Shown: positions 8,480 to 55,878 of the stretch, piece by piece
Layout of the letters: each line of letters begins with the position of its first letter
Numbering within the stretch: position 1 is the first letter of the stretch
Source of the DNA: Escherichia phage p000y
Length of the DNA stretch: 64,000 nucleotides
Sequence record: MK047718.1
Strand: one strand, 5' to 3'
Program-made: the position numbers and the translations under genes
Notes under the pieces: model-generated
Seen by the model: the letters and a program-made list of their open reading frames with translations, nothing else
Told to the model about the DNA's origin: nothing
Database searches by the model: none

Positions 8480-9475
8480 ATGAGCATTACATCTGATGCG
8501 ATAAAACATGAAATTAACGGTTTATGTGCTTCACAGATTAAAGTGTGGTTTAAAGACCATAATGATCGCAGAGCGCTTAATTATGAACGAATTGCTATCC
8601 AAGTTCATCAATTACTGGTTAGTAAATTTGATTTTCATATGCCGTCTGAAATCTATACTAATCTACCGCAAGCGCTTATTAAAGCGTGTAAAGGCTACGG
8701 AAAATCAATGGCTGATGGAATCTTCAGCGCGCTGAATAAACTTAACGTTCTGTCGATGATTAACTCTAACAATATCCTGCGTAATCTAGGACGTACTGAT
8801 TTGTTCGGTCGTGAACAGTGTAAAATGCCTTTGAAATGGATTGTTGCTCATCTTAACGAGAACCAAACACGTTTTATGGCCGTAACAGCACGTTTACAAA
8901 TGGGCCTAGATCGTCAGATGAACTTTAAAACTCATCCACGTTATTCAGGTTCAACTGACTTTTATAAATGTGAGCTTCAAAAGATTGCAGGCAAAACTGT
9001 CTTAGTAGTTCGTGTAACGTTTGAAGGACGTCGTCAAGGATATTTTGACCTAATCGGCTCTGGTCTCAAACATTGTGGATTTATCGACGAAGTTGATATC
9101 AAGCGAGACGGCACTGGATACCGTATTGGGTATGTTTGTACTCTTAAAGAAGAGATTTCAGGACCAGCACCAGGACTAAAAGACGTTAGATATAAAGACG
9201 AGCTAGTTGAAGAAATAAAAGAAGTTGAATACGATATCAACCAAGAAGATGCTCTTAAAGACCTTATTGACGAACTAAACCAAGACGTTATTCCGGTTCA
9301 GAAATTTGAATCAAAACATGCTGAGCAAATCAAATACTTTGAAGCTTTGATTAACGAACTTAATGTAACTATTCAACAGACTGACGATGAAATCTCACGA
9401 TTAGCAGGCTTAAATGGTAAAAATAAAACAGAACGAGCTAATCTTATTCAAGTAGTAAAACTTCTTAAGGAATGA
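8480..9475 (+). CDS. Hypothetical protein, 331 aa, with C-terminal coiled coil
   Basis: RBS GAGGAAA upstream; heptad-like C-terminus. Confidence 0.45.
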   Translation: MSITSDAIKHEINGLCASQIKVWFKDHNDRRALNYERIAIQVHQLLVSKFDFHMPSEIYTNLPQALIKACKGYGKSMADGIFSALNKLNVLSMINSNNILRNLGRTDLFGREQCKMPLKWIVAHLNENQTRFMAVTARLQMGLDRQMNFKTHPRYSGSTDFYKCELQKIAGKTVLVVRVTFEGRRQGYFDLIGSGLKHCGFIDEVDIKRDGTGYRIGYVCTLKEEISGPAPGLKDVRYKDELVEEIKEVEYDINQEDALKDLIDELNQDVIPVQKFESKHAEQIKYFEALINELNVTIQQTDDEISRLAGLNGKNKTERANLIQVVKLLKE

Positions 9476-9504
9476 TGTACAACCAAGGATGGTTGGAGTA
9501 TAAT
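9475..9504 (+). promoter_or_regulatory. Early promoter, copy of the repeated CAACCAAGGATGGTTGGAGTATAAT cassette
   Basis: ATGTAC -35, TATAAT 9499-9504; palindromic spacer CAACCA-AGGA-TGGTTG. Confidence 0.55.
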
Positions 9505-9530
9505 AAATTTTTCAACATGAGGAATATAAA

Positions 9531-10490
9531 ATGGCTTTTATTACACGTAGAGAACTTATCAAAGAATTTACCTCGAACGCATATACCCCAGGACCTAATC
9601 CTATCCGTATGCCTGTAAAGACTCCTGAAGAGATTGAGGAAATCTGTTCATATTATGGGATTACTTCTCGTAAGTTTACTCAATTTGAATGCGTTACTAA
9701 CACACCCGTTAAAGAGTTCATTAAAAATGGTGAGTTCAGCCGTTTATTAGCCAAACAGAAACTTCGTAATTTTTGTATCGGCGGTGAAGGACAATATTTC
9801 GCTAAACAGTTCCGAAATAACCTTAACAATCTGATGGCCATTGCTTCTCGTATTCGTCCTCAAGCAATTAACATGAAACATTTGAAATATACTTATGATA
9901 AGTTAGAAATCATGGTTATCAGTGAGAATGAGTTCACTCTTACATATAAACCTAAGAATGATAACGTTGCTCGTGTATTCCACCAAGCGTTGGAAGTTTT
10001 AGGTGATAATATCCACCAGATTAAAGCGATTTATTCTCGTGAGCTTAATATTATCAACCCTATCAAGAATAAGGGCCATATCGCTATCCAGGCTCGTGTA
10101 TCTATTGGTAAAAAGGTTCCTGCGCCGTGGTGGCACAAAGACTCTGAATACTATCAAAATCTTAAAAAGGAAAATGCAACGTTTGAAGCATCGCTTACTG
10201 GGACCCCAATTGAACAGGCCGAAGTCCTAAGTGCTTATTCTACTTCGGGTAAATCAATGTTTAAAGGTTTGCCAAATGTGTGCAAACTGTCTGCAGTAAA
10301 ACTAAATGTTTCTAATGACCTTCTTCCGGCCGAAGATTACCATTACAATCAAATCAAGGCCACTATGGACCAACTGTCTGTTGAACTTGACAAAGCACAA
10401 GCTAAGCTTCGTGATGCTCAACAAGTAGTTACCAATCTCCAGTTGCAGTACTCTAAACTTTTTAACGCAATGAATGCATTAAAATCATAA
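9531..10490 (+). CDS. Hypothetical protein, 319 aa, with C-terminal coiled coil
   Basis: RBS GAGGAA upstream; C-terminus ...QAKLRDAQQVVTNLQLQYSKL. Confidence 0.45.
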   Translation: MAFITRRELIKEFTSNAYTPGPNPIRMPVKTPEEIEEICSYYGITSRKFTQFECVTNTPVKEFIKNGEFSRLLAKQKLRNFCIGGEGQYFAKQFRNNLNNLMAIASRIRPQAINMKHLKYTYDKLEIMVISENEFTLTYKPKNDNVARVFHQALEVLGDNIHQIKAIYSRELNIINPIKNKGHIAIQARVSIGKKVPAPWWHKDSEYYQNLKKENATFEASLTGTPIEQAEVLSAYSTSGKSMFKGLPNVCKLSAVKLNVSNDLLPAEDYHYNQIKATMDQLSVELDKAQAKLRDAQQVVTNLQLQYSKLFNAMNALKS

Positions 10491-10494
10491 ATCA

Positions 10495-10524
10495 GTTTAC
10501 AACCAAGGATGGTTGGAGTATAAT
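10495..10524 (+). promoter_or_regulatory. Early promoter, second copy of the repeated cassette
   Basis: GTTTACAACCAAGGATGGTTGGAGTATAAT, identical to the 52491-52520 copy. Confidence 0.55.
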
Positions 10525-10552
10525 GAATCTATCTTAACGAGAGGAAAATATT

Positions 10553-11497
10553 ATGACACGTTCACATTACATTGATTATTTTGCAGGTCTTATCGCTAAT
10601 GTTCATGCCCAACGTGCTTCTGGTTCATTAGGATTTGATGTTCCACACCGAGATGTAGTAAGTGGTATTCTTCGCGATTTTGGTACATATACCGGCCAAG
10701 AAAATCATATCTGTAAAGATACTCAAAATGCGTATTCTCATTCATTAGGGACACTGCTTCAATGGTTCAAACGTTCTCGTTTATTATCTTCTACTGTAGC
10801 TCGCGATAACATTAAAAACTTTATGAAACCGAGCTTTATTAAATCTGTGACATCTAAAACCGATTTGGTTGAATTCACTATTGTTAATGATGTTAAAAAG
10901 ACTCATTTAGCTGATTGGTTATCTACCATTCCTGAAACTAAATTTGCTGATAAATTTGCTTGTGAATTCAATAACCAAGTGAATATGCTTTTTAAACATT
11001 CTCGTAAATTATTCACTGGCGGTGATGGTCGTACAAATAAAGTTCATGTTAAAGATTGGGTTACTGCAGTATTCAAACCAACCGGTAATGGTAACGCATC
11101 ATTATCAATTGATATCCAGGTTCCTTATTACTACTCACGTAATCTCGGTACCATGAAAGCCGAAGAAATTAAGAAGCACAATAAAACCGTTCGTTCGCTG
11201 TCTTATAAACTTCGTATGATGTTACAGACTATGGATGTTGTTGAAATGTTCGACGAAACCGAAGATAACGGTTCAATGTTATTCAGTTCTCGAATTAAAA
11301 TTAAACTGAAGAACCCTAATGTGTTTAAGCCTATTAAAGAACCTAAAGCAGAAAAGGTTGATATCATGGCTGAAGAACGTGAGTACCTCAAATCTCGTCT
11401 GAAAGAAGTCGAAGCCCAGATTGCAGAACAAACTAAATCGTTAAAAGCTCTGAATGCGAAAGCGGATGGTTTACGAAATGCCATTGAGGTGTTATAA
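10553..11497 (+). CDS. Hypothetical protein, 314 aa, with C-terminal coiled coil
   Basis: RBS GAGAGGAAA upstream; C-terminus ...LKEVEAQIAEQTKSLKALNAKADGLRNAIEVL. Confidence 0.45.
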   Translation: MTRSHYIDYFAGLIANVHAQRASGSLGFDVPHRDVVSGILRDFGTYTGQENHICKDTQNAYSHSLGTLLQWFKRSRLLSSTVARDNIKNFMKPSFIKSVTSKTDLVEFTIVNDVKKTHLADWLSTIPETKFADKFACEFNNQVNMLFKHSRKLFTGGDGRTNKVHVKDWVTAVFKPTGNGNASLSIDIQVPYYYSRNLGTMKAEEIKKHNKTVRSLSYKLRMMLQTMDVVEMFDETEDNGSMLFSSRIKIKLKNPNVFKPIKEPKAEKVDIMAEEREYLKSRLKEVEAQIAEQTKSLKALNAKADGLRNAIEVL

Positions 11498-50176: not shown

Positions 50177-50488
50177 ATGGTTTATGTATATGCAATAGTT
50201 TATCGAGATATGGAAGGATTTACTGTCCCGGTTCCACTTGATGAGCATCGTCCTGCAGTATTTTTTAGAAAGGATATTGCAGATAAAGTTTTCGATACTT
50301 TGAAAACACAGTATAAAACAGATTTAAAAATGGGAGTTCTAAGAATGGTCGAAACTCCGCGTAAGTTTTGGTTTAATAAGCTTGAAATGAAACACGTTAA
50401 ACTAGATGCGGAGACGCAAAGATTGTATCAACGAATTCTGGACACAGGCCGTATTGTTAGTATTCCAATTGCAGGGACTTTACGATGA
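50177..50488 (+). CDS. Hypothetical protein, 103 aa (dda.1 position)
   Basis: Tightly packed upstream of dda. Confidence 0.4.
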   Translation: MVYVYAIVYRDMEGFTVPVPLDEHRPAVFFRKDIADKVFDTLKTQYKTDLKMGVLRMVETPRKFWFNKLEMKHVKLDAETQRLYQRILDTGRIVSIPIAGTLR

Positions 50489-51798
50489 CATTTGATGATT
50501 TGACTGAAGGTCAGAAAAACGCCTTCAACGTTGTTATGAACGCTATTAAAGAAAAGAAACATCACGTAACTATTAATGGGCCCGCTGGTACAGGTAAAAC
50601 AACCCTTACTAGATTCATCGTTGAAGCTCTTATTTCTGCCGGAGAATCAGGTATTATTTTAGCAGCCCCTACACATGCTGCTAAAAAGGTTCTAAGCAAA
50701 CTTGCTGGTCAAGAAGCATCGACTATTCATAGCATTCTTAAAATCAACCCAACTACATACGAAGAAAACGTATTGTTTGAACAGAAAAAGGTTCCCGACT
50801 TAGCCTTGTGTCGTGTACTGTTATTTGATGAAGCGTCAATGTGCGACCGTTCTCTGTTTAAAATAATGTTAGCTAGTATCCCTAAATGGTGTACAGTAAT
50901 TGGAATCGGCGACCGATGCCAGATTCGTCCGGTAGACCCAGGCGAATCAACTGCGTATCTAAGTCCTTTCTTCACTCACAAAGACTTCGTGCAATGCAAC
51001 CTTACAGAAGTTAAACGTAGCAATGCACCAATTATTGATGTTGCGACTGATATTCGTAATGGCAAATGGATTTACGATAAAGTAGTTGATGGACACGGTG
51101 TTCATGGATATACAGACCTTAAATCCTATATGATGAACTATTTTAACGTCGTTAAAACTCCTGAAGACCTTTTCGAAAATCGAATGATGGCATTCACAAA
51201 TAAGTCGGTGGACAAGTTGAATTCAATTATTCGCCGAAAACTTCTTGAAACAGAAAAACCGTTTATTAAAGACGAAGTCATTGTTCTACAAGAGCCATTT
51301 ACTAAGACATATAAACTAGATGGCAAAAATATGACCGAAATGCTTTTCAATAACGGGCAATTCGTTCGTATTCGAGATGCTGTAGAAACGTCTACATTCG
51401 TTAAAGCACGTGGTGTTTCAGGCGAATATATGATACGATACTGGAATCTTACAGTAGAAACATATGGGGATGATGAAGAATACATCCGCGAAGATATAAA
51501 GGTTATTTCTTCTGAAGAAGAGCTTTATAAATTCAATTTGTTTTTGGCTAAGACCGCAGAAACATACAAATTCTGGAATAAAGGCGGTAAAGCTCCATGG
51601 AGCGAATTCTGGGATGCTAAACGTATGTTCACTAAGGTGAAGGCACTACCAGTATCAACCTTCCATAAGGCCCAGGGCATGTCCGTCAATACAGCCTTTG
51701 TTTATACTCCGTGTATCCATTACGCTGATTCAGAATTAGCTAAACAGTTATTGTATGTCGGCACAACTCGTGGTCGTTTTGACGTCCATTTTATTTGA
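50485..51798 (+). CDS. dda: DNA helicase Dda (SF1B)
   Basis: 437 aa; Walker A GPAGTGKTT, Walker B LFDEASM. Confidence 0.9.
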   Translation: MTFDDLTEGQKNAFNVVMNAIKEKKHHVTINGPAGTGKTTLTRFIVEALISAGESGIILAAPTHAAKKVLSKLAGQEASTIHSILKINPTTYEENVLFEQKKVPDLALCRVLLFDEASMCDRSLFKIMLASIPKWCTVIGIGDRCQIRPVDPGESTAYLSPFFTHKDFVQCNLTEVKRSNAPIIDVATDIRNGKWIYDKVVDGHGVHGYTDLKSYMMNYFNVVKTPEDLFENRMMAFTNKSVDKLNSIIRRKLLETEKPFIKDEVIVLQEPFTKTYKLDGKNMTEMLFNNGQFVRIRDAVETSTFVKARGVSGEYMIRYWNLTVETYGDDEEYIREDIKVISSEEELYKFNLFLAKTAETYKFWNKGGKAPWSEFWDAKRMFTKVKALPVSTFHKAQGMSVNTAFVYTPCIHYADSELAKQLLYVGTTRGRFDVHFI

Positions 51799-51807
51799 GA
51801 GAAAATT

Positions 51808-52485
51808 ATGAGCACTGATGTTATTATAGATTTTGAAACATTCGGCAATACATCAAAAGCGGCTGTTATTGACCTTGCGGTTATTGCATATAATTCCGAC
51901 CCTGAAGTTGTTGAATCATTTGAAGAACTTGTTCAACGAGGTAAGCGAATTAAATTTAATTTAGCTTCTCAGAAAGGGAAGCGAGTTTTCGCTAAATCCA
52001 CTATGAAATGGTGGAAAGAACAATCAGCAGAAGCACGTAAAAACCTGGCTCCGTCTGAAGACGATGTCACTACGCTTGAAGGTATTAAAATCTTTTTAGA
52101 TTATTGTCGAGCTAATAAAGTTGACCAATGGAAATCACAGATGTGGTGCCGTGGTATGAGCTTTGACTTCCCGATCTTGGTCGATTTGATTCGTGATCTC
52201 TATCGTGATGAAGGTGTTCTTGAACCAGATATTGATACTGATAAATTAGAACCTGTTAAATTCTGGGCTCAACGTGATATTCGTACGGCAATCGAAGCTT
52301 ACTCGTTGACACGAGGATTAAGTATGTGTCCATTACCGATGGGTACGCTAAAAGGATTCGTTGCCCATGATAGTATTCACGATTGTGCTAAAGATATTTT
52401 GATGTTAAAATATGCTCAGCGTTATGCGCTTGGCCTTGAAGATGTCCCTGAGAATCCTGACCCGTTAAGTGTAAAACAGCGATAA
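51808..52485 (+). CDS. dexA: Exonuclease A (DEDDh 3'-5' exonuclease)
   Basis: 225 aa; motif I IIDFETFG. Confidence 0.85.
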   Translation: MSTDVIIDFETFGNTSKAAVIDLAVIAYNSDPEVVESFEELVQRGKRIKFNLASQKGKRVFAKSTMKWWKEQSAEARKNLAPSEDDVTTLEGIKIFLDYCRANKVDQWKSQMWCRGMSFDFPILVDLIRDLYRDEGVLEPDIDTDKLEPVKFWAQRDIRTAIEAYSLTRGLSMCPLPMGTLKGFVAHDSIHDCAKDILMLKYAQRYALGLEDVPENPDPLSVKQR

Positions 52486-52490
52486 AACCA

Positions 52491-52520
52491 GTTTACAACC
52501 AAGGATGGTTGGAGTATAAT
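52491..52520 (+). promoter_or_regulatory. Early promoter, third copy of the repeated cassette
   Basis: GTTTACAACCAAGGATGGTTGGAGTATAAT, identical to the 10495-10524 copy. Confidence 0.55.
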
Positions 52521-52550
52521 CTTTCTATCTTAACCAAACAGGAAAACATT

Positions 52551-53045
52551 ATGAATATCAATACCACGGCTACTTACATCCTGAAAGATGAAAAACAAAT
52601 CAACTGGTACGGTGCTTCAGTGCGAGCTTATGAAAAGTTTTGTGAAATTTTAGGTGCCACTCAAGGTAATAGTTTCACTATTGTTAACTTCATCAAACAA
52701 GTTGAAGGCCCTTGGTTATTCTTAGAAATTAAAAATTCATATGGTATAATTTCTACTACCGCCCTTCCAAGCACCGACTTTGAACTGTTGATTGAAGAAG
52801 TAGAACCCGTTAAAGATATCTGTATTGATATGGATATCGCTTGTATGTACGGTACTCTGATTAAGCCTATTGAGCCTACTGATTTGTTGTGTAAATATGT
52901 TTCAATTCGACGCCCATTCGCTGGTCCAGTAAATGGATGGGTAACTGACCAATGGATTGAAGACGGTGTTGAACTTCTGAACGTTGTTCATGCAGGTGAT
53001 TTTAGTGTAGTTCCACGTAGTGCTGTGGTTAATATCCTTAATTAA
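52551..53045 (+). CDS. Paralogue family member 1 (C-terminal VTDQWIEDG motif), 164 aa
   Basis: ATG 52551 with RBS AGGAAA; shares its C-terminal motif with the two following ORFs. Confidence 0.45.
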   Translation: MNINTTATYILKDEKQINWYGASVRAYEKFCEILGATQGNSFTIVNFIKQVEGPWLFLEIKNSYGIISTTALPSTDFELLIEEVEPVKDICIDMDIACMYGTLIKPIEPTDLLCKYVSIRRPFAGPVNGWVTDQWIEDGVELLNVVHAGDFSVVPRSAVVNILN

Positions 53046-53047
53046 TG

Positions 53048-53077
53048 TTGTACATCCAAGGACGGATGGAGTATAAT
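53048..53077 (+). promoter_or_regulatory. Early promoter, variant of the repeated cassette
   Basis: TTGTAC ... CCAAGGACGGATGGAG TATAAT. Confidence 0.5.
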
Positions 53078-53107
53078 GAATTCAACTTAAACAAAGAGAG
53101 AGAAATT

Positions 53108-53563
53108 ATGATTACTATTGGTGAAATTAAGCGTGTATCGTCTGCATCTCGTTCTAAAGCTGCAGGTCGTCTAGTTGAAGTGGTAGGACTTCGTACTAAT
53201 GGTACTGGTCGTGTTAAAGAAGTTAAAGTTCGAATCATTCCTAGTTCTGGAAAAACTGAAACTCAGTACGCTTACGTAAGTCCTAAATTCTTGGAAACTC
53301 ATGTGAGCGCTCATTTTGCTTCTACTGAACCTAATGTACAGTTCAAATGGGCCTTGTGTAAAGGTGTTGAATTCCAGACTGATAAAGAATTTGACTTCAT
53401 CGATGAATACGGTTATCCAAGCAAAACTGATACTATGTGTGGCTTCATTAGTGACCAATGGGTTGAAGATGGTGAAAAGTTATACAATATCGTATTCTTA
53501 GGTGACTTCCGAGTTGTTAAAGAATCTGAAATCACTCGCTATGTGTCTCCTCGTAAAGCTTAA
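53108..53563 (+). CDS. Paralogue family member 2 (FISDQWVEDG motif), 151 aa
   Basis: ATG 53108 with RBS AGAGAGAGAAA. Confidence 0.45.
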   Translation: MITIGEIKRVSSASRSKAAGRLVEVVGLRTNGTGRVKEVKVRIIPSSGKTETQYAYVSPKFLETHVSAHFASTEPNVQFKWALCKGVEFQTDKEFDFIDEYGYPSKTDTMCGFISDQWVEDGEKLYNIVFLGDFRVVKESEITRYVSPRKA

Positions 53564-53572
53564 GGAATTATT

Positions 53573-53992
53573 ATGAATATTGTAAATCTCTCTACAGGTG
53601 ATTACGTATATGTATCTGTTGCTTCTCGCTCTAAAGTTGCCGGGAAGTTGGTTGAAGTTCTTTCTGTGAGTGATCCGGTTTTTGGTCGTAACCAAGTTAA
53701 AGTTCGTGATGCTAATGGTAATATTGGCTACATCTCAAGCCAGTTCATTGAGCCAGAAGAACGTGCGTTCAAATGGAAACTGTGCAGGTCAGTTTTAGTT
53801 GTAAAAGACCATGAATTTACTATTGCTGCCGCAACTGATGGGTCTCCATGGACAACGAATCAAGTCGCTGGTTTTATTTCAGACCAATGGGTTGAAGATG
53901 GTGTTAAGCTTTATAACATCGTTTTCGCCGGACAGTTCATGGTAGTTCCTGAATTCCAAATCAAAGGATATAGCCAAGCATCTTTTGCATAA
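53573..53992 (+). CDS. Paralogue family member 3 (FISDQWVEDG motif), 139 aa
   Basis: N-terminal SRSK(A/V)AGKLVEV and C-terminal GFISDQWVEDGVKLYNIVF shared with member 2. Confidence 0.45.
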   Translation: MNIVNLSTGDYVYVSVASRSKVAGKLVEVLSVSDPVFGRNQVKVRDANGNIGYISSQFIEPEERAFKWKLCRSVLVVKDHEFTIAAATDGSPWTTNQVAGFISDQWVEDGVKLYNIVFAGQFMVVPEFQIKGYSQASFA

Positions 53993-53996
53993 AGTT

Positions 53997-54025
53997 GTTT
54001 ACTTCTCCTCCGGTTTTGATATTAT
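53997..54025 (+). promoter_or_regulatory. Early promoter (GTTTAC, TATTAT) with flanking inverted repeat
   Basis: 17-bp spacing; CTCCTCCGGTT ... AACCAGAGGAG. Confidence 0.5.
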
Positions 54026-54051
54026 AACCATATCAACCAGAGGAGAATAAT

Positions 54052-54576
54052 ATGTTAGTTTACCGCGTAGAACGTAGTTTTTGTACTCAACGTGAATCAT
54101 TACCAGGAATTGCTATCGAAGACGGTAAAGCCGTCAGAATTTGGGAAACCTCTTGGAATAAAGAACCTCGCTCGCCATACGGTTGGTCGGGCACCGACAA
54201 CTCTGAAGAAACATGGGAGTTCCTTGATAAGCATGGAATACTCTCAGGTAACTTCTACCATCACGGCGACAACTATAATGTCCCTAATCGTCCTACAGTA
54301 AATGAAGACAAACTCCTTGAACAAAATATCTTAAGATACCATAGAATTGAGTACACATTTGAATTGAGTGAAGATTGGGCTCAAGGGTTCTATTTTGGAT
54401 TTGAAAGCGTTGACGCGGTTTATGCATGGTTTGATGACCAGGTGGATGTTGAACTCTTGAAAGCTAAAGGATACTACATCGCGGTCTATGAAGCACCTGA
54501 TTTCATCCTCGGAAGTTGTCAATTAATGTTCAGACGTTCATTGGCAGAACAAGTTGATTTTATTTTGCTAAAATGA
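54052..54576 (+). CDS. Hypothetical protein, 174 aa
   Basis: RBS AGAGGAG upstream. Confidence 0.45.
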   Translation: MLVYRVERSFCTQRESLPGIAIEDGKAVRIWETSWNKEPRSPYGWSGTDNSEETWEFLDKHGILSGNFYHHGDNYNVPNRPTVNEDKLLEQNILRYHRIEYTFELSEDWAQGFYFGFESVDAVYAWFDDQVDVELLKAKGYYIAVYEAPDFILGSCQLMFRRSLAEQVDFILLK

Positions 54577-54605
54577 TGTACAACAACTATGGTTTATGAT
54601 ACTAT
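54576..54605 (+). promoter_or_regulatory. Early promoter (ATGTAC, TACTAT)
   Basis: 18-bp spacing; followed by TATAGACCTATC. Confidence 0.45.
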
Positions 54606-54633: not shown

Positions 54634-54861
54634 ATGAAATGTCAAATCATTAAAAACGTAACTACTGATTCAAACATCGATGAGTTTGAAGATGTTCTGT
54701 TTAATCCTGATTTAGTTGTTGTACAGAAAAACTGGACCGGATTTTTATGCTACACCGAAGTGGTTTACGTTTACGAAAAACTCGGCGATGAAATGCCTAT
54801 CTATGGTATCTTCCGTGAAATCACTGAAAACGGTACAACTTATTGGAAGGAAACTTACTAA
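54634..54861 (+). CDS. Hypothetical protein, 75 aa
   Basis: RBS AGAGGAG upstream of ATG 54634. Confidence 0.4.
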
Positions 54862-55271
54862 TGGCTAATAAATTCCGCGTTAACTCATGGTACCAATTTA
54901 AAGATAAACGTGCCCAAGAAGAGTTTATTAAGGACCACACCGATAATGGTATTTATGCACGACGTCTTGGCATGGAACCATTTAAAGTATTAGATGTTGA
55001 CCATCTTGGTCGTCCTACTAAAATTGTGACATCTACTGGCATGGTTGGATACGCGACAGGTGGTGATATCCTTGATGAAAACTTTATCTGGCTCTCCACG
55101 AATGAAGCAGAGTTTTTTGATGAAGTGGGAAATCCGTATCAAGCGTCCGAAGAGCAAGATTCTGGTGAACTTGACGAATTGTCTGAATTTCCGGTGATGA
55201 CAATTACTATCGAAAATAACGACCAGGCATGGTCTTTGTATCAAATGTTGAAAGCACATTTTAAGGAATAA
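54861..55271 (+). CDS. Hypothetical acidic protein, 136 aa
   Basis: TAATG overlap start. Confidence 0.4.
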
Positions 55272-55273
55272 TA

Positions 55274-55453
55274 ATGCCGTTATACGACTATAAATGCCAA
55301 TCTGAAGATTGCGGACATGAATATGAAAAAATTAAAAGGATTTCTGAACGAGAAAACGATGTTTGCCCTGAATGTCATCGTCTGTCTACTCGTCGGGTTT
55401 CTGCTCCTAAACATGTGAACGGTGGTTTTTACGACTTACTTAAGAAGGGTTAA
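55274..55453 (+). CDS. FmdB-type zinc-ribbon protein, 59 aa
   Basis: MPLYDYKCQSEDCGHEYE...CPECH; below the track cutoff. Confidence 0.45.
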   Translation: MPLYDYKCQSEDCGHEYEKIKRISERENDVCPECHRLSTRRVSAPKHVNGGFYDLLKKG

Positions 55454-55455
55454 TT

Positions 55456-55878
55456 ATGGCTTTTAAAGGTTTTGAAGTTGGTAAGAAATATCGTATTATC
55501 AAAGGACAGGAAGATAATTTCTTGAGAATTCTTAATACGACTGGTAAACGTCTTAACACTACTCTGCATACAGTTTTATTATCAAGAGATTTTATTGTAG
55601 AAGAGATGATTGGTTATGGTGTTTCAATGATTGCCGCTGAAACCGATGGACCTGGACGTACAATCATTAGTATGCAAGGTGATATTCTGATTTATGGTGC
55701 AGAATTTAAATTCTTTGAAGAAGTTCCGGAACAAGATACAGCTGTCGATTTCAAAAAAGGCTCTATAGAATTTGTTGATGGTTCGGTGATCGTATCAGGC
55801 GATGTGGTCATTACAGTTAAAAGTGAACAAGGGCGTTTGGCTGCAATTGATGCACTTCAGAAAATTAAATTTAAATAA
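55456..55878 (+). CDS. Hypothetical protein, 140 aa
   Basis: ORF ending at the terminator. Confidence 0.45.
   Translation: MAFKGFEVGKKYRIIKGQEDNFLRILNTTGKRLNTTLHTVLLSRDFIVEEMIGYGVSMIAAETDGPGRTIISMQGDILIYGAEFKFFEEVPEQDTAVDFKKGSIEFVDGSVIVSGDVVITVKSEQGRLAAIDALQKIKFK

Follow-up and report, generated by a model that had tools for sequence, protein, structure and literature searches.

motB.1, motB and a motB-like gene of an RB69-like phage: two-domain proteins with a predicted common C-terminal beta-barrel

The three adjacent genes 3′ of dexA in Escherichia phage p000y (MK047718.1) are probably the motB.1, motB and motB-like genes of an RB69-like phage, early and non-essential genes of host take-over whose products would be two-domain proteins with a common C-terminal beta-barrel of ~55-75 residues. 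The gene identities are secure at the level of sequence comparison, and the roles discussed below are ones that we infer. The family has already been published, as have its common C-terminal domain and the additional motB gene of RB69-like phages, and the finding is an ordinary one. MotB and MotB.1 have been described as having a common C-terminal domain and different N-terminal domains, the relatives of MotB have been sorted into four categories, with extra copies in several genomes, and RB69 has been credited with two motB genes, one motB.1 gene and one 29-aa peptide (Patterson-West et al., 2021; PMC7827196).

Gene identities and genome setting

The whole stretch of DNA analysed (the window; 64,000 nucleotides) belongs to a Mosigvirus (RB69-like) T-even phage. 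Positions 51800-54600 are 96-97% identical at the nucleotide level to many RB69/JS09/APCEc01-like genomes, and Mosigvirus genomes at 97% nucleotide identity annotate the same genes. The region is syntenic with T4 (dda-dexA-...-cef-goF-39.2-39; Table 1), and the RB69 locus motB.1/ORF012/motB/ORF010 (NC_004928) matches the cluster gene for gene and in order; amino acid identity is 96% for ORF2, whose RB69 counterpart is motB (RB69p011), and 86% for ORF3. The sequence-only reading had recognized three reading frames 3′ of dexA, and we find ORF1, ORF2 and ORF3 at the same positions, in a plastic, dispensable early region. The gene that follows, ORF4, is 33% identical to T4 MotB.2; in T4, motB.2 lies 5′ of motB.1, whereas in the window its homologue lies 3′ of ORF3. 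ORF4 was rejected as a member of the family, having neither a match to the Pfam motB model nor significant similarity to ORF1-3. Despite its name, MotB.2 is unrelated to MotB in sequence.

Table 1. Positions of genes, domains and regulatory features around the cluster (window coordinates)
Feature	Position	Strand	Details
dda	50485-51798	+	
dexA	51808-52485	+	
Early promoter, sigma-70 type, 5′ of ORF1	52492-52520	+	TTTACA-17-TATAAT, 11/12
ORF1	52551-53045	+	MotB.1 type, 164 aa
ORF1 C-terminal barrel (predicted)	52872-53042		residues 108-164, ~57 aa
Early promoter 5′ of ORF2	53049-53077	+	TGTACA-17-TATAAT, 10/12
ORF2	53108-53563	+	assigned MotB orthologue, 151 aa
ORF2 N-terminal domain	53108-53293		basic, KOW-like, net +8
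ORF2 C-terminal barrel (predicted)	~53333-53560		
ORF3	53573-53992	+	assigned second MotB paralogue, 139 aa
ORF3 N-terminal domain	53573-53752		
ORF3 C-terminal domain	53762-53989		
Downstream border	53998-54047	+	promoter-like site 53998-54025 (9/12 with TG) overlapping hairpin 54003-54047
ORF4	54052-54576	+	motB.2 homologue
cef	54634-54861	+	
goF	54861-55271	+	
39.2	55274-55453	+	
goF-like ORF	55456-55878	+	140 aa
gene 39	from 55942	+	

Sequence comparison identifies ORF2 as the T4 MotB orthologue. The two proteins are 48% identical over their full length (E 6e-44), and ORF2 matches the Pfam family PF17613 (motB) at 132.4 bits and E 1.8e-38, over model positions 2-157 of 162. ORF3, 37% identical to T4 MotB, matches the same family at 80.9 bits (E 1.2e-22); all three proteins score above its gathering cut-off of 25 bits, and ORF2 and ORF3 are both placed in PHROGs as 'MotB-like transcriptional regulator' (phrog_1671). 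Like T4 MotB (PF17613; PHROG 1671), they combine a KOW-like N-terminal domain carrying SRSKAAGKLVEV with a C-terminal barrel carrying DQWVEDGVKLYN, and they occupy the genomic slot between dexA and cef, with early promoters. ORF2 and ORF3 have the same two-domain layout and are homologous along their full length (43% identity over 145 aa), appearing as sisters in a neighbour-joining tree built without bootstrap. Compared with T4 MotB, ORF3 is missing the RIIPxxGK hairpin and ~22 residues of the linker, and it is near neutral (pI 5.8 versus 9.2). Its AF2 model (pLDDT 84), built like that of ORF1 on a family alignment, predicts a four-strand head at residues 11-55 and a five-strand barrel at residues 73-133. 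A sequence search for structural relatives of ORF2 in the PDB returned no match at E <= 1. An internal duplication relating the two domains of MotB to one another was also considered and rejected, at an hhalign probability of <3%.

ORF1 is of the MotB.1 type. It matches phrog_2333 end to end (residues 1-164, E 6.6e-82; PHROGs) and T4 MotB.1 at 37% identity (E 2e-26, BLASTP), while its match to PF17613 covers residues 84-159 only (model positions 78-153, 35.2 bits, E 1e-8). Its N-terminal domain (residues 1-85) has no relation to MotB; it is followed by a disordered linker (residues 86-107) carrying DMDIACMYGTLIKP and by the C-terminal domain shared with ORF2 and ORF3. The protein is acidic, with a pI of 4.5. 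The AF2 model (pLDDT 79; <50 in the linker) predicts an N-terminal domain at residues 1-83, with strands at 8-11, 42-49, 55-61, 67-73 and 80-83 and a helix at 26-37, and a five-strand barrel at 116-163. Like T4 MotB.1 (PHROG 2333; 'Category 2', Patterson-West et al., 2021), ORF1 lies directly 5′ of motB and has a MotB.1-type C-terminal domain; unlike the 143-aa T4-type MotB.1, it adds the linker of ~22 residues.

GoF, Frd.2 and the N-terminal domain of MotB.1 have been grouped as a family with an LSm-like fold, likened to Hfq and characterized by a bent five-stranded antiparallel sheet (Kim et al., 2025, PMC12152347). A link between the ORF1 N-terminal domain and GoF/Frd.2 by fold was sought in BFVD; the search gave no named GoF or Frd.2, only MotB and MotB.1 relatives. 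The only link to the GoF/Frd.2-type fold family is a weak match of the 39.1-like protein of the window to phrog_2333 (E 0.0026).

ORF1 is complete, whereas the T4 reference MotB.1 (119 aa) is cut within its C-terminal domain by one extra G. The RB69 record of motB.1 carries two frame changes that leave a 132-aa ORF and a 29-aa ORF, where the window has an intact 164-aa gene. Full-length MotB.1 is encoded in another T4 assembly (OZ035787), and a protein of this form appears on 256 contigs. As judged from these comparisons, the short motB.1 genes of the T4 and RB69 references, and with them the RB69 '29-aa peptide', result from frame changes in the records.

The shared C-terminal domain

The sequence-only reading had drawn attention to a C-terminal block common to the three proteins. 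This block (GWVTDQWIEDGVELLNVVHAGDFSVVP in ORF1, GFISDQWVEDGEKLYNIVFLGDFRVVK in ORF2 and GFISDQWVEDGVKLYNIVFAGQFMVVP in ORF3) aligns free of gaps, and its core, DQW(V/I)EDG...L(Y/L)N(I/V)V, is present in all three. Smith-Waterman comparison against 1000 shuffles gives z-scores of 15.0 (ORF1-ORF2), 15.6 (ORF1-ORF3) and 43.8 (ORF2-ORF3), and hhalign aligns the MotB.1-type and MotB-type C-terminal domains at a probability of 99.1% and E 3.9e-19 over 49 columns. The motif therefore reflects real homology, and composition is ruled out as its source. The N-terminal segment SRSK(A/V)AG(R/K)LVEV, which the same reading had assigned to the second and third genes, is indeed restricted to ORF2 and ORF3 in the alignment. 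Neither a fourth copy of the block nor a stray remnant of the RB69-like 29-aa kind was found by tblastn elsewhere in the 64-kb window. When a C-terminal-domain profile was run against 1.84 billion representative proteins, it recovered 29 clusters (at 50% identity), 27 of them genuine, all of these being phage-type proteins of 43-251 aa. The other two candidates (P0183 and P0187) were discarded as distant relatives, being long repeat proteins that match the short motif several times.

HHpred has placed the shared C-terminal domain in the cold-shock OB family, a possible DNA binder (PMC7827196), and one reading of the cluster is that all three proteins bind nucleic acid through a C-terminal OB-fold, their N-terminal domains being accessory. 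Besides the published assignment, this reading can draw on the tight DNA binding of MotB and on the C-terminal domain being the most conserved part of the family, present in every genuine cluster. The charge distribution argues against it. The C-terminal domains of ORF1-3 are neutral to acidic, with net charges of -1 to -4, their invariant residues include D, E and D in a C-terminal-only alignment that covers all five strands, and ORF1 as a whole is acidic. The N-terminal domains carry net charges of +5 in T4 MotB, +8 in ORF2 and +1 in ORF3; thus in T4 MotB and ORF2 the positive charge resides in the KOW-like head, which forms the strongly basic part of MotB. Modelling gives the C-terminal domain a barrel of SH3/Tudor-like appearance, not clearly the OB-fold that was published. 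With a C-terminal domain that looks SH3/Tudor-like and is not basic, the DNA-binding surface likely shifts to the KOW head, and we consider binding through a C-terminal OB-fold unlikely. Net basic charge fits MotB-type DNA binding for ORF2, and not for ORF3 or ORF1.

Promoters and the repeated leader cassette

An individual promoter for each gene had been proposed from the sequence. This holds, with strong early-promoter matches, for ORF1 (11/12) and for ORF2 (10/12), and it does not extend to ORF3, for which no promoter match was found: its start lies 9 nt past the stop of ORF2, preceded only by a ribosome-binding site, AAGGA. ORF3 is most likely co-transcribed with ORF2, and the predicted ORF2 promoter probably drives the joint transcript. 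The mechanical ORF2 frame opens at 53045, and the start that matches T4 and RB69 MotB is at 53108; the -10 box of the ORF2 promoter falls inside the longer frame, and 53108 is therefore the likely start codon.

Cassette alignment reveals the ORF2 promoter to be a second copy of the cassette that holds the ORF1 promoter. This promoter/leader cassette of ~46-70 nt occurs in four copies in the window, at about 9464, 10479, 52485 and 53037, and its core, CCAAGGAYGGWTGGAGTATAAT, lies at 9483, 10503, 52499 and 53056, with 0 occurrences expected by chance. The likeness of the ORF1 and ORF2 promoters is thus explained by a shared regulatory cassette, and not by their having been duplicated together with the genes. 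The three ~320-aa ORFs that follow the other two cassettes belong to three different PHROGs.

At the downstream border, the hairpin has a folding energy of -19.8 kcal/mol (z -4.0, with 0/200 shuffles equally good), and its 3′ arm covers the ribosome-binding site of ORF4; a terminator is annotated at the ORF3/ORF4 border in a close relative. The arrangement recalls the PeSL cassettes of T4-type phages, in which near-identical early-promoter cassettes are likewise repeated in plastic regions (Arbiol 2010; Comeau 2014). A composite of promoter and hairpin at the 3′ border of the cluster, and a surrounding gene order that differs between genera, are also PeSL-like. In contrast to PeSL, the cassettes before ORF1 and ORF2 have no evident stem-loop, the hairpin being confined to the ORF3/ORF4 border, and the hybrid genes found here (see below) recombine within the coding sequence, at the domain boundary, and not at a cassette.

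History of the cluster and proposed roles

Profile HMMs of the modules were scanned over the stop-to-stop frames of 8 loci, which allowed the copy number of related phages to be compared, as had been suggested. It varies from 1 to 3: one gene with the shared C-terminal domain in Klebsiella phage Marfa (a KOW-like head with a MotB.1-type C-terminal domain), two each in JS98, VR7 and T4, and three each in RB3, RB69, SA79RD and the window. Most of the divergent members among the genuine C-terminal-domain clusters have a KOW-like head, and the combination of KOW head and C-terminal domain therefore looks ancestral. The MotB.1 form in turn looks like a head swap.

The sequence-only reading had seen in the cluster a tandem triplication typical of genes under host-range or defence-evasion selection. 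In its full form, this account would have a single gene triplicate recently, each copy having its own promoter, and then diversify in an arms race. The plastic, non-essential setting and the variable copy number speak for it, as do the divergence of ORF3 within Mosigvirus (86-91% amino acid identity versus 96-99% for its neighbours) and the action of MotB against H-NS, a silencer of foreign DNA. The three genes are genuine paralogues, as that reading implied, but no single gene was triplicated: ORF2 and ORF3 arose as a pair by whole-gene duplication, whereas ORF1 has only the C-terminal domain in common with them and therefore arose by domain shuffling. Nor was the pair formed recently, as dS between ORF2 and ORF3 is saturated (1.65) and the duplication is therefore old. 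Recent gene conversion between the two was considered and rejected as well, as only 79% of the 58 nt of their conserved core are identical, synonymous differences are numerous and dS overall is saturated. Diversifying selection left no sign, with gene-wide dN/dS at 0.08-0.31 in ORF1-3 (0.10-0.31 in ORF3; compared with RB69, SA79RD and RB3), and by this sequence measure all three genes are under purifying selection. In ORF3, dS is raised together with the amino acid divergence, a pattern that suggests exchange of alleles and not positive selection. Further, the promoter that the account requires of ORF3 is missing, and about 200 genomes share this conserved arrangement. Taken as a whole, recent triplication with arms-race diversification is very unlikely. 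The idea of defence evasion survives only in a loose sense, through the T4 MotB/H-NS literature and not through the pattern from which it was first drawn.

ORF3 itself is, on comparison with its relatives, an old and diverged duplicate of motB that is still constrained. That it is instead a redundant, decaying copy with no function of its own is scarcely credible: its short length (139 aa versus 151-162), its lack of the basic hairpin, most of the linker and net positive charge, and its absence from most Tequatrovirus genomes could be taken that way, yet orthologues at >=80% identity are intact and full length in 207 of 777 matching phage records, dN/dS is low, the AF2 model is confident, the C-terminal domain is kept in natural hybrids, and the motB/ORF3 pair has apparently been transferred between genera. 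This last point concerns Tequatrovirus RB3, in which motB and the ORF3-type gene are each 90% identical to those of the window, versus 41-68% for dexA, motB.2 and cef and 80% for goF; RB3 appears to have acquired the pair by exchange.

The natural hybrids place such exchange at the boundary between the domains. Hybrid P0149, which comes from at least 3 samples, follows T4 motB over nt 1-281 (98% identity) and the RB3 paralogue over nt 268-492 (97% identity). In hybrid P0148, the only motB gene between motB.1 and cef, the head is of the ORF2 type and the C-terminal domain of the ORF3 type. The junction in both is the FKW at the start of the C-terminal domain. That the hybrids are assembly chimeras is unlikely, as the paralogues of the window share only 9 identical nt at the junction and P0149 recurs. 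In these sequences, the C-terminal domain behaves as a module that is exchangeable between paralogues.

We propose that the three proteins differ by their heads, which would be a basic KOW domain in ORF2, a nearly neutral KOW domain in ORF3 and an acidic MotB.1-type domain in ORF1. By homology, ORF2 would act as T4 MotB does, through its strongly basic KOW-like N-terminal domain. A 2021 paper by Son et al. in NAR is said to deal with MotB and DNA compaction. In the T4 MotB literature, MotB is made early and in abundance and binds DNA tightly, with no specificity for sequence; H-NS and StpA co-purify with it only if DNA is present, the H-NS footprint is altered and part of the H-NS regulon is de-repressed, and the protein, toxic to E. 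coli, raises the fitness of the phage. T4 MotB alters the binding to DNA of H-NS, a xenogeneic silencer, and the authors found no direct contact between MotB and H-NS when DNA was absent (PMC7827196). The MotB.1-type head of ORF1 may be RNA-related; in T4, a motB.1 deletion was without phenotype in the laboratory (Kim et al., 2025, PMC12152347). ORF3 and ORF1 may modulate or diversify the action of MotB instead of repeating it, and the shared, slightly acidic C-terminal barrel would serve as a module for interaction or self-association and not as the main DNA-binding surface. A further step, which we regard as quite unlikely, is that the Tudor/SH3-like barrel joins MotB, ORF3 and MotB.1 in mixed oligomers on nucleic acid, a phage 'chromatin' system that would tune or cap the compaction and H-NS displacement brought about by MotB, or provide a link to RNA, with recombination at the domain boundary making new combinations.

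The discovery value of these observations is low, the family having been published in 2021 and the genes of the window being 97% identical to many deposited genomes. Their practical value for researchers of MotB and MotB.1 is modest. The frame change may matter for negative results that were published for the short form of MotB.1, and the C-terminal domain becomes a candidate for protein-protein contacts.

Reading frames and linker of motB.1

In the T4 reference NC_000866, motB.1 encodes 119 aa ending in DQWIGRWR*, and the gene carries one surplus G (GGATTGGAAGATGG) relative to the T4 assembly OZ035787 (GGATTGAAGATGG), where the product is a 143-aa protein with a complete C-terminal domain. 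Because the long form is found in OZ035787 and is on record from 256 contigs, the 13.8-kDa "T4 MotB.1" of published work may be a truncated form. The RB69 reference gene is split by two frame changes within the C-terminal domain, and RB69p012, described as a "29-aa Category 3 peptide" (PMC7827196), is the motB.1 tail read out of frame. An intact 164-aa motB.1 is present in the window and in SA79RD.

Between the N-terminal head and the C-terminal domain of ORF1, the MotB.1-type protein, lies a disordered linker (pLDDT below 50) carrying the conserved short linear motif D-x-D-[IV]-A-[SC]-M-Y-G-T-L-I-K-P at residues 92-105. The same motif stands at the N-terminus of MotB.1-type proteins of ~180 aa, internally in those of ~250 aa, and within the linker of KOW-headed relatives from Klebsiella and Enterobacter phages. 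This pattern suggests a putative docking peptide.

Coordinates of the features discussed
Feature	Sequence	Position
Promoter/leader cassette copy	window	9464-9509
Promoter/leader cassette copy	window	10479-10556
Promoter/leader cassette copy	window	52485-52554
Promoter/leader cassette copy	window	53037-53090
319-aa ORF	window	9531-10490
314-aa ORF	window	10553-11497
motB.1 (ORF1), intact	window	52551-53045
ORF1 linker motif	window	52824-52865
motB and ORF3-type pair	window	53108-53992
Promoter-like site with overlapping hairpin	window	53998-54047
goF	window	54861-55271
140-aa ORF	window	55456-55878
motB.1, split	RB69 locus	1482-1978
motB.1, 119 aa	NC_000866	7291-7650
motB and ORF3-type pair	RB3 locus	2018-2920
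Hybrid motB	metagenomic contig L008	1373-1894

Predicted regulatory elements and possible neighbouring paralogues

Four near-identical copies of an early promoter/leader cassette occur in the window, and pairwise matches between them reach 27/27, and 87% across 70 nt. The two distant copies lead ORFs of 319 and 314 aa, with an ORF of 331 aa alongside; all three are assigned to separate PHROGs, each of unknown function. At the ORF3/ORF4 border, a promoter-like site shares part of its sequence with a stable hairpin (-19.8 kcal/mol, z -4.0), giving a putative PeSL-like promoter/stem-loop composite. The hairpin pairs through its 3′ arm with the ribosome-binding site of ORF4, the motB.2 homologue, and the composite may either end the ORF2-ORF3 transcript or gate ORF4 translation. 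Further along, phrog_622 is matched by both goF and a 140-aa ORF directly 5′ of gene 39, the latter also weakly matching phrog_2333, the ORF1 family (E 0.0026). Judged by these family matches, the two would be a further, distant paralogue pair, in agreement with the published GoF/MotB.1/Frd.2 LSm-like superfamily.

Recombination and probable transfer of the motB pair

The Tequatrovirus RB3 carries a motB and ORF3-type pair with 90% protein identity to that of the window, but the flanking dexA, motB.2, and cef are just 41-68% identical, and goF 80%. This disparity indicates that the two genes were probably transferred between genera as a unit. On metagenomic contigs (L008, and L009-L011 with product P0149), the position of the pair is occupied by a single hybrid gene, whose motB head gives way, at the FKW domain boundary, to a C-terminal domain of the ORF3 type. 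The replacement of two genes by one such hybrid shows that the motB and ORF3-type paralogues recombine.
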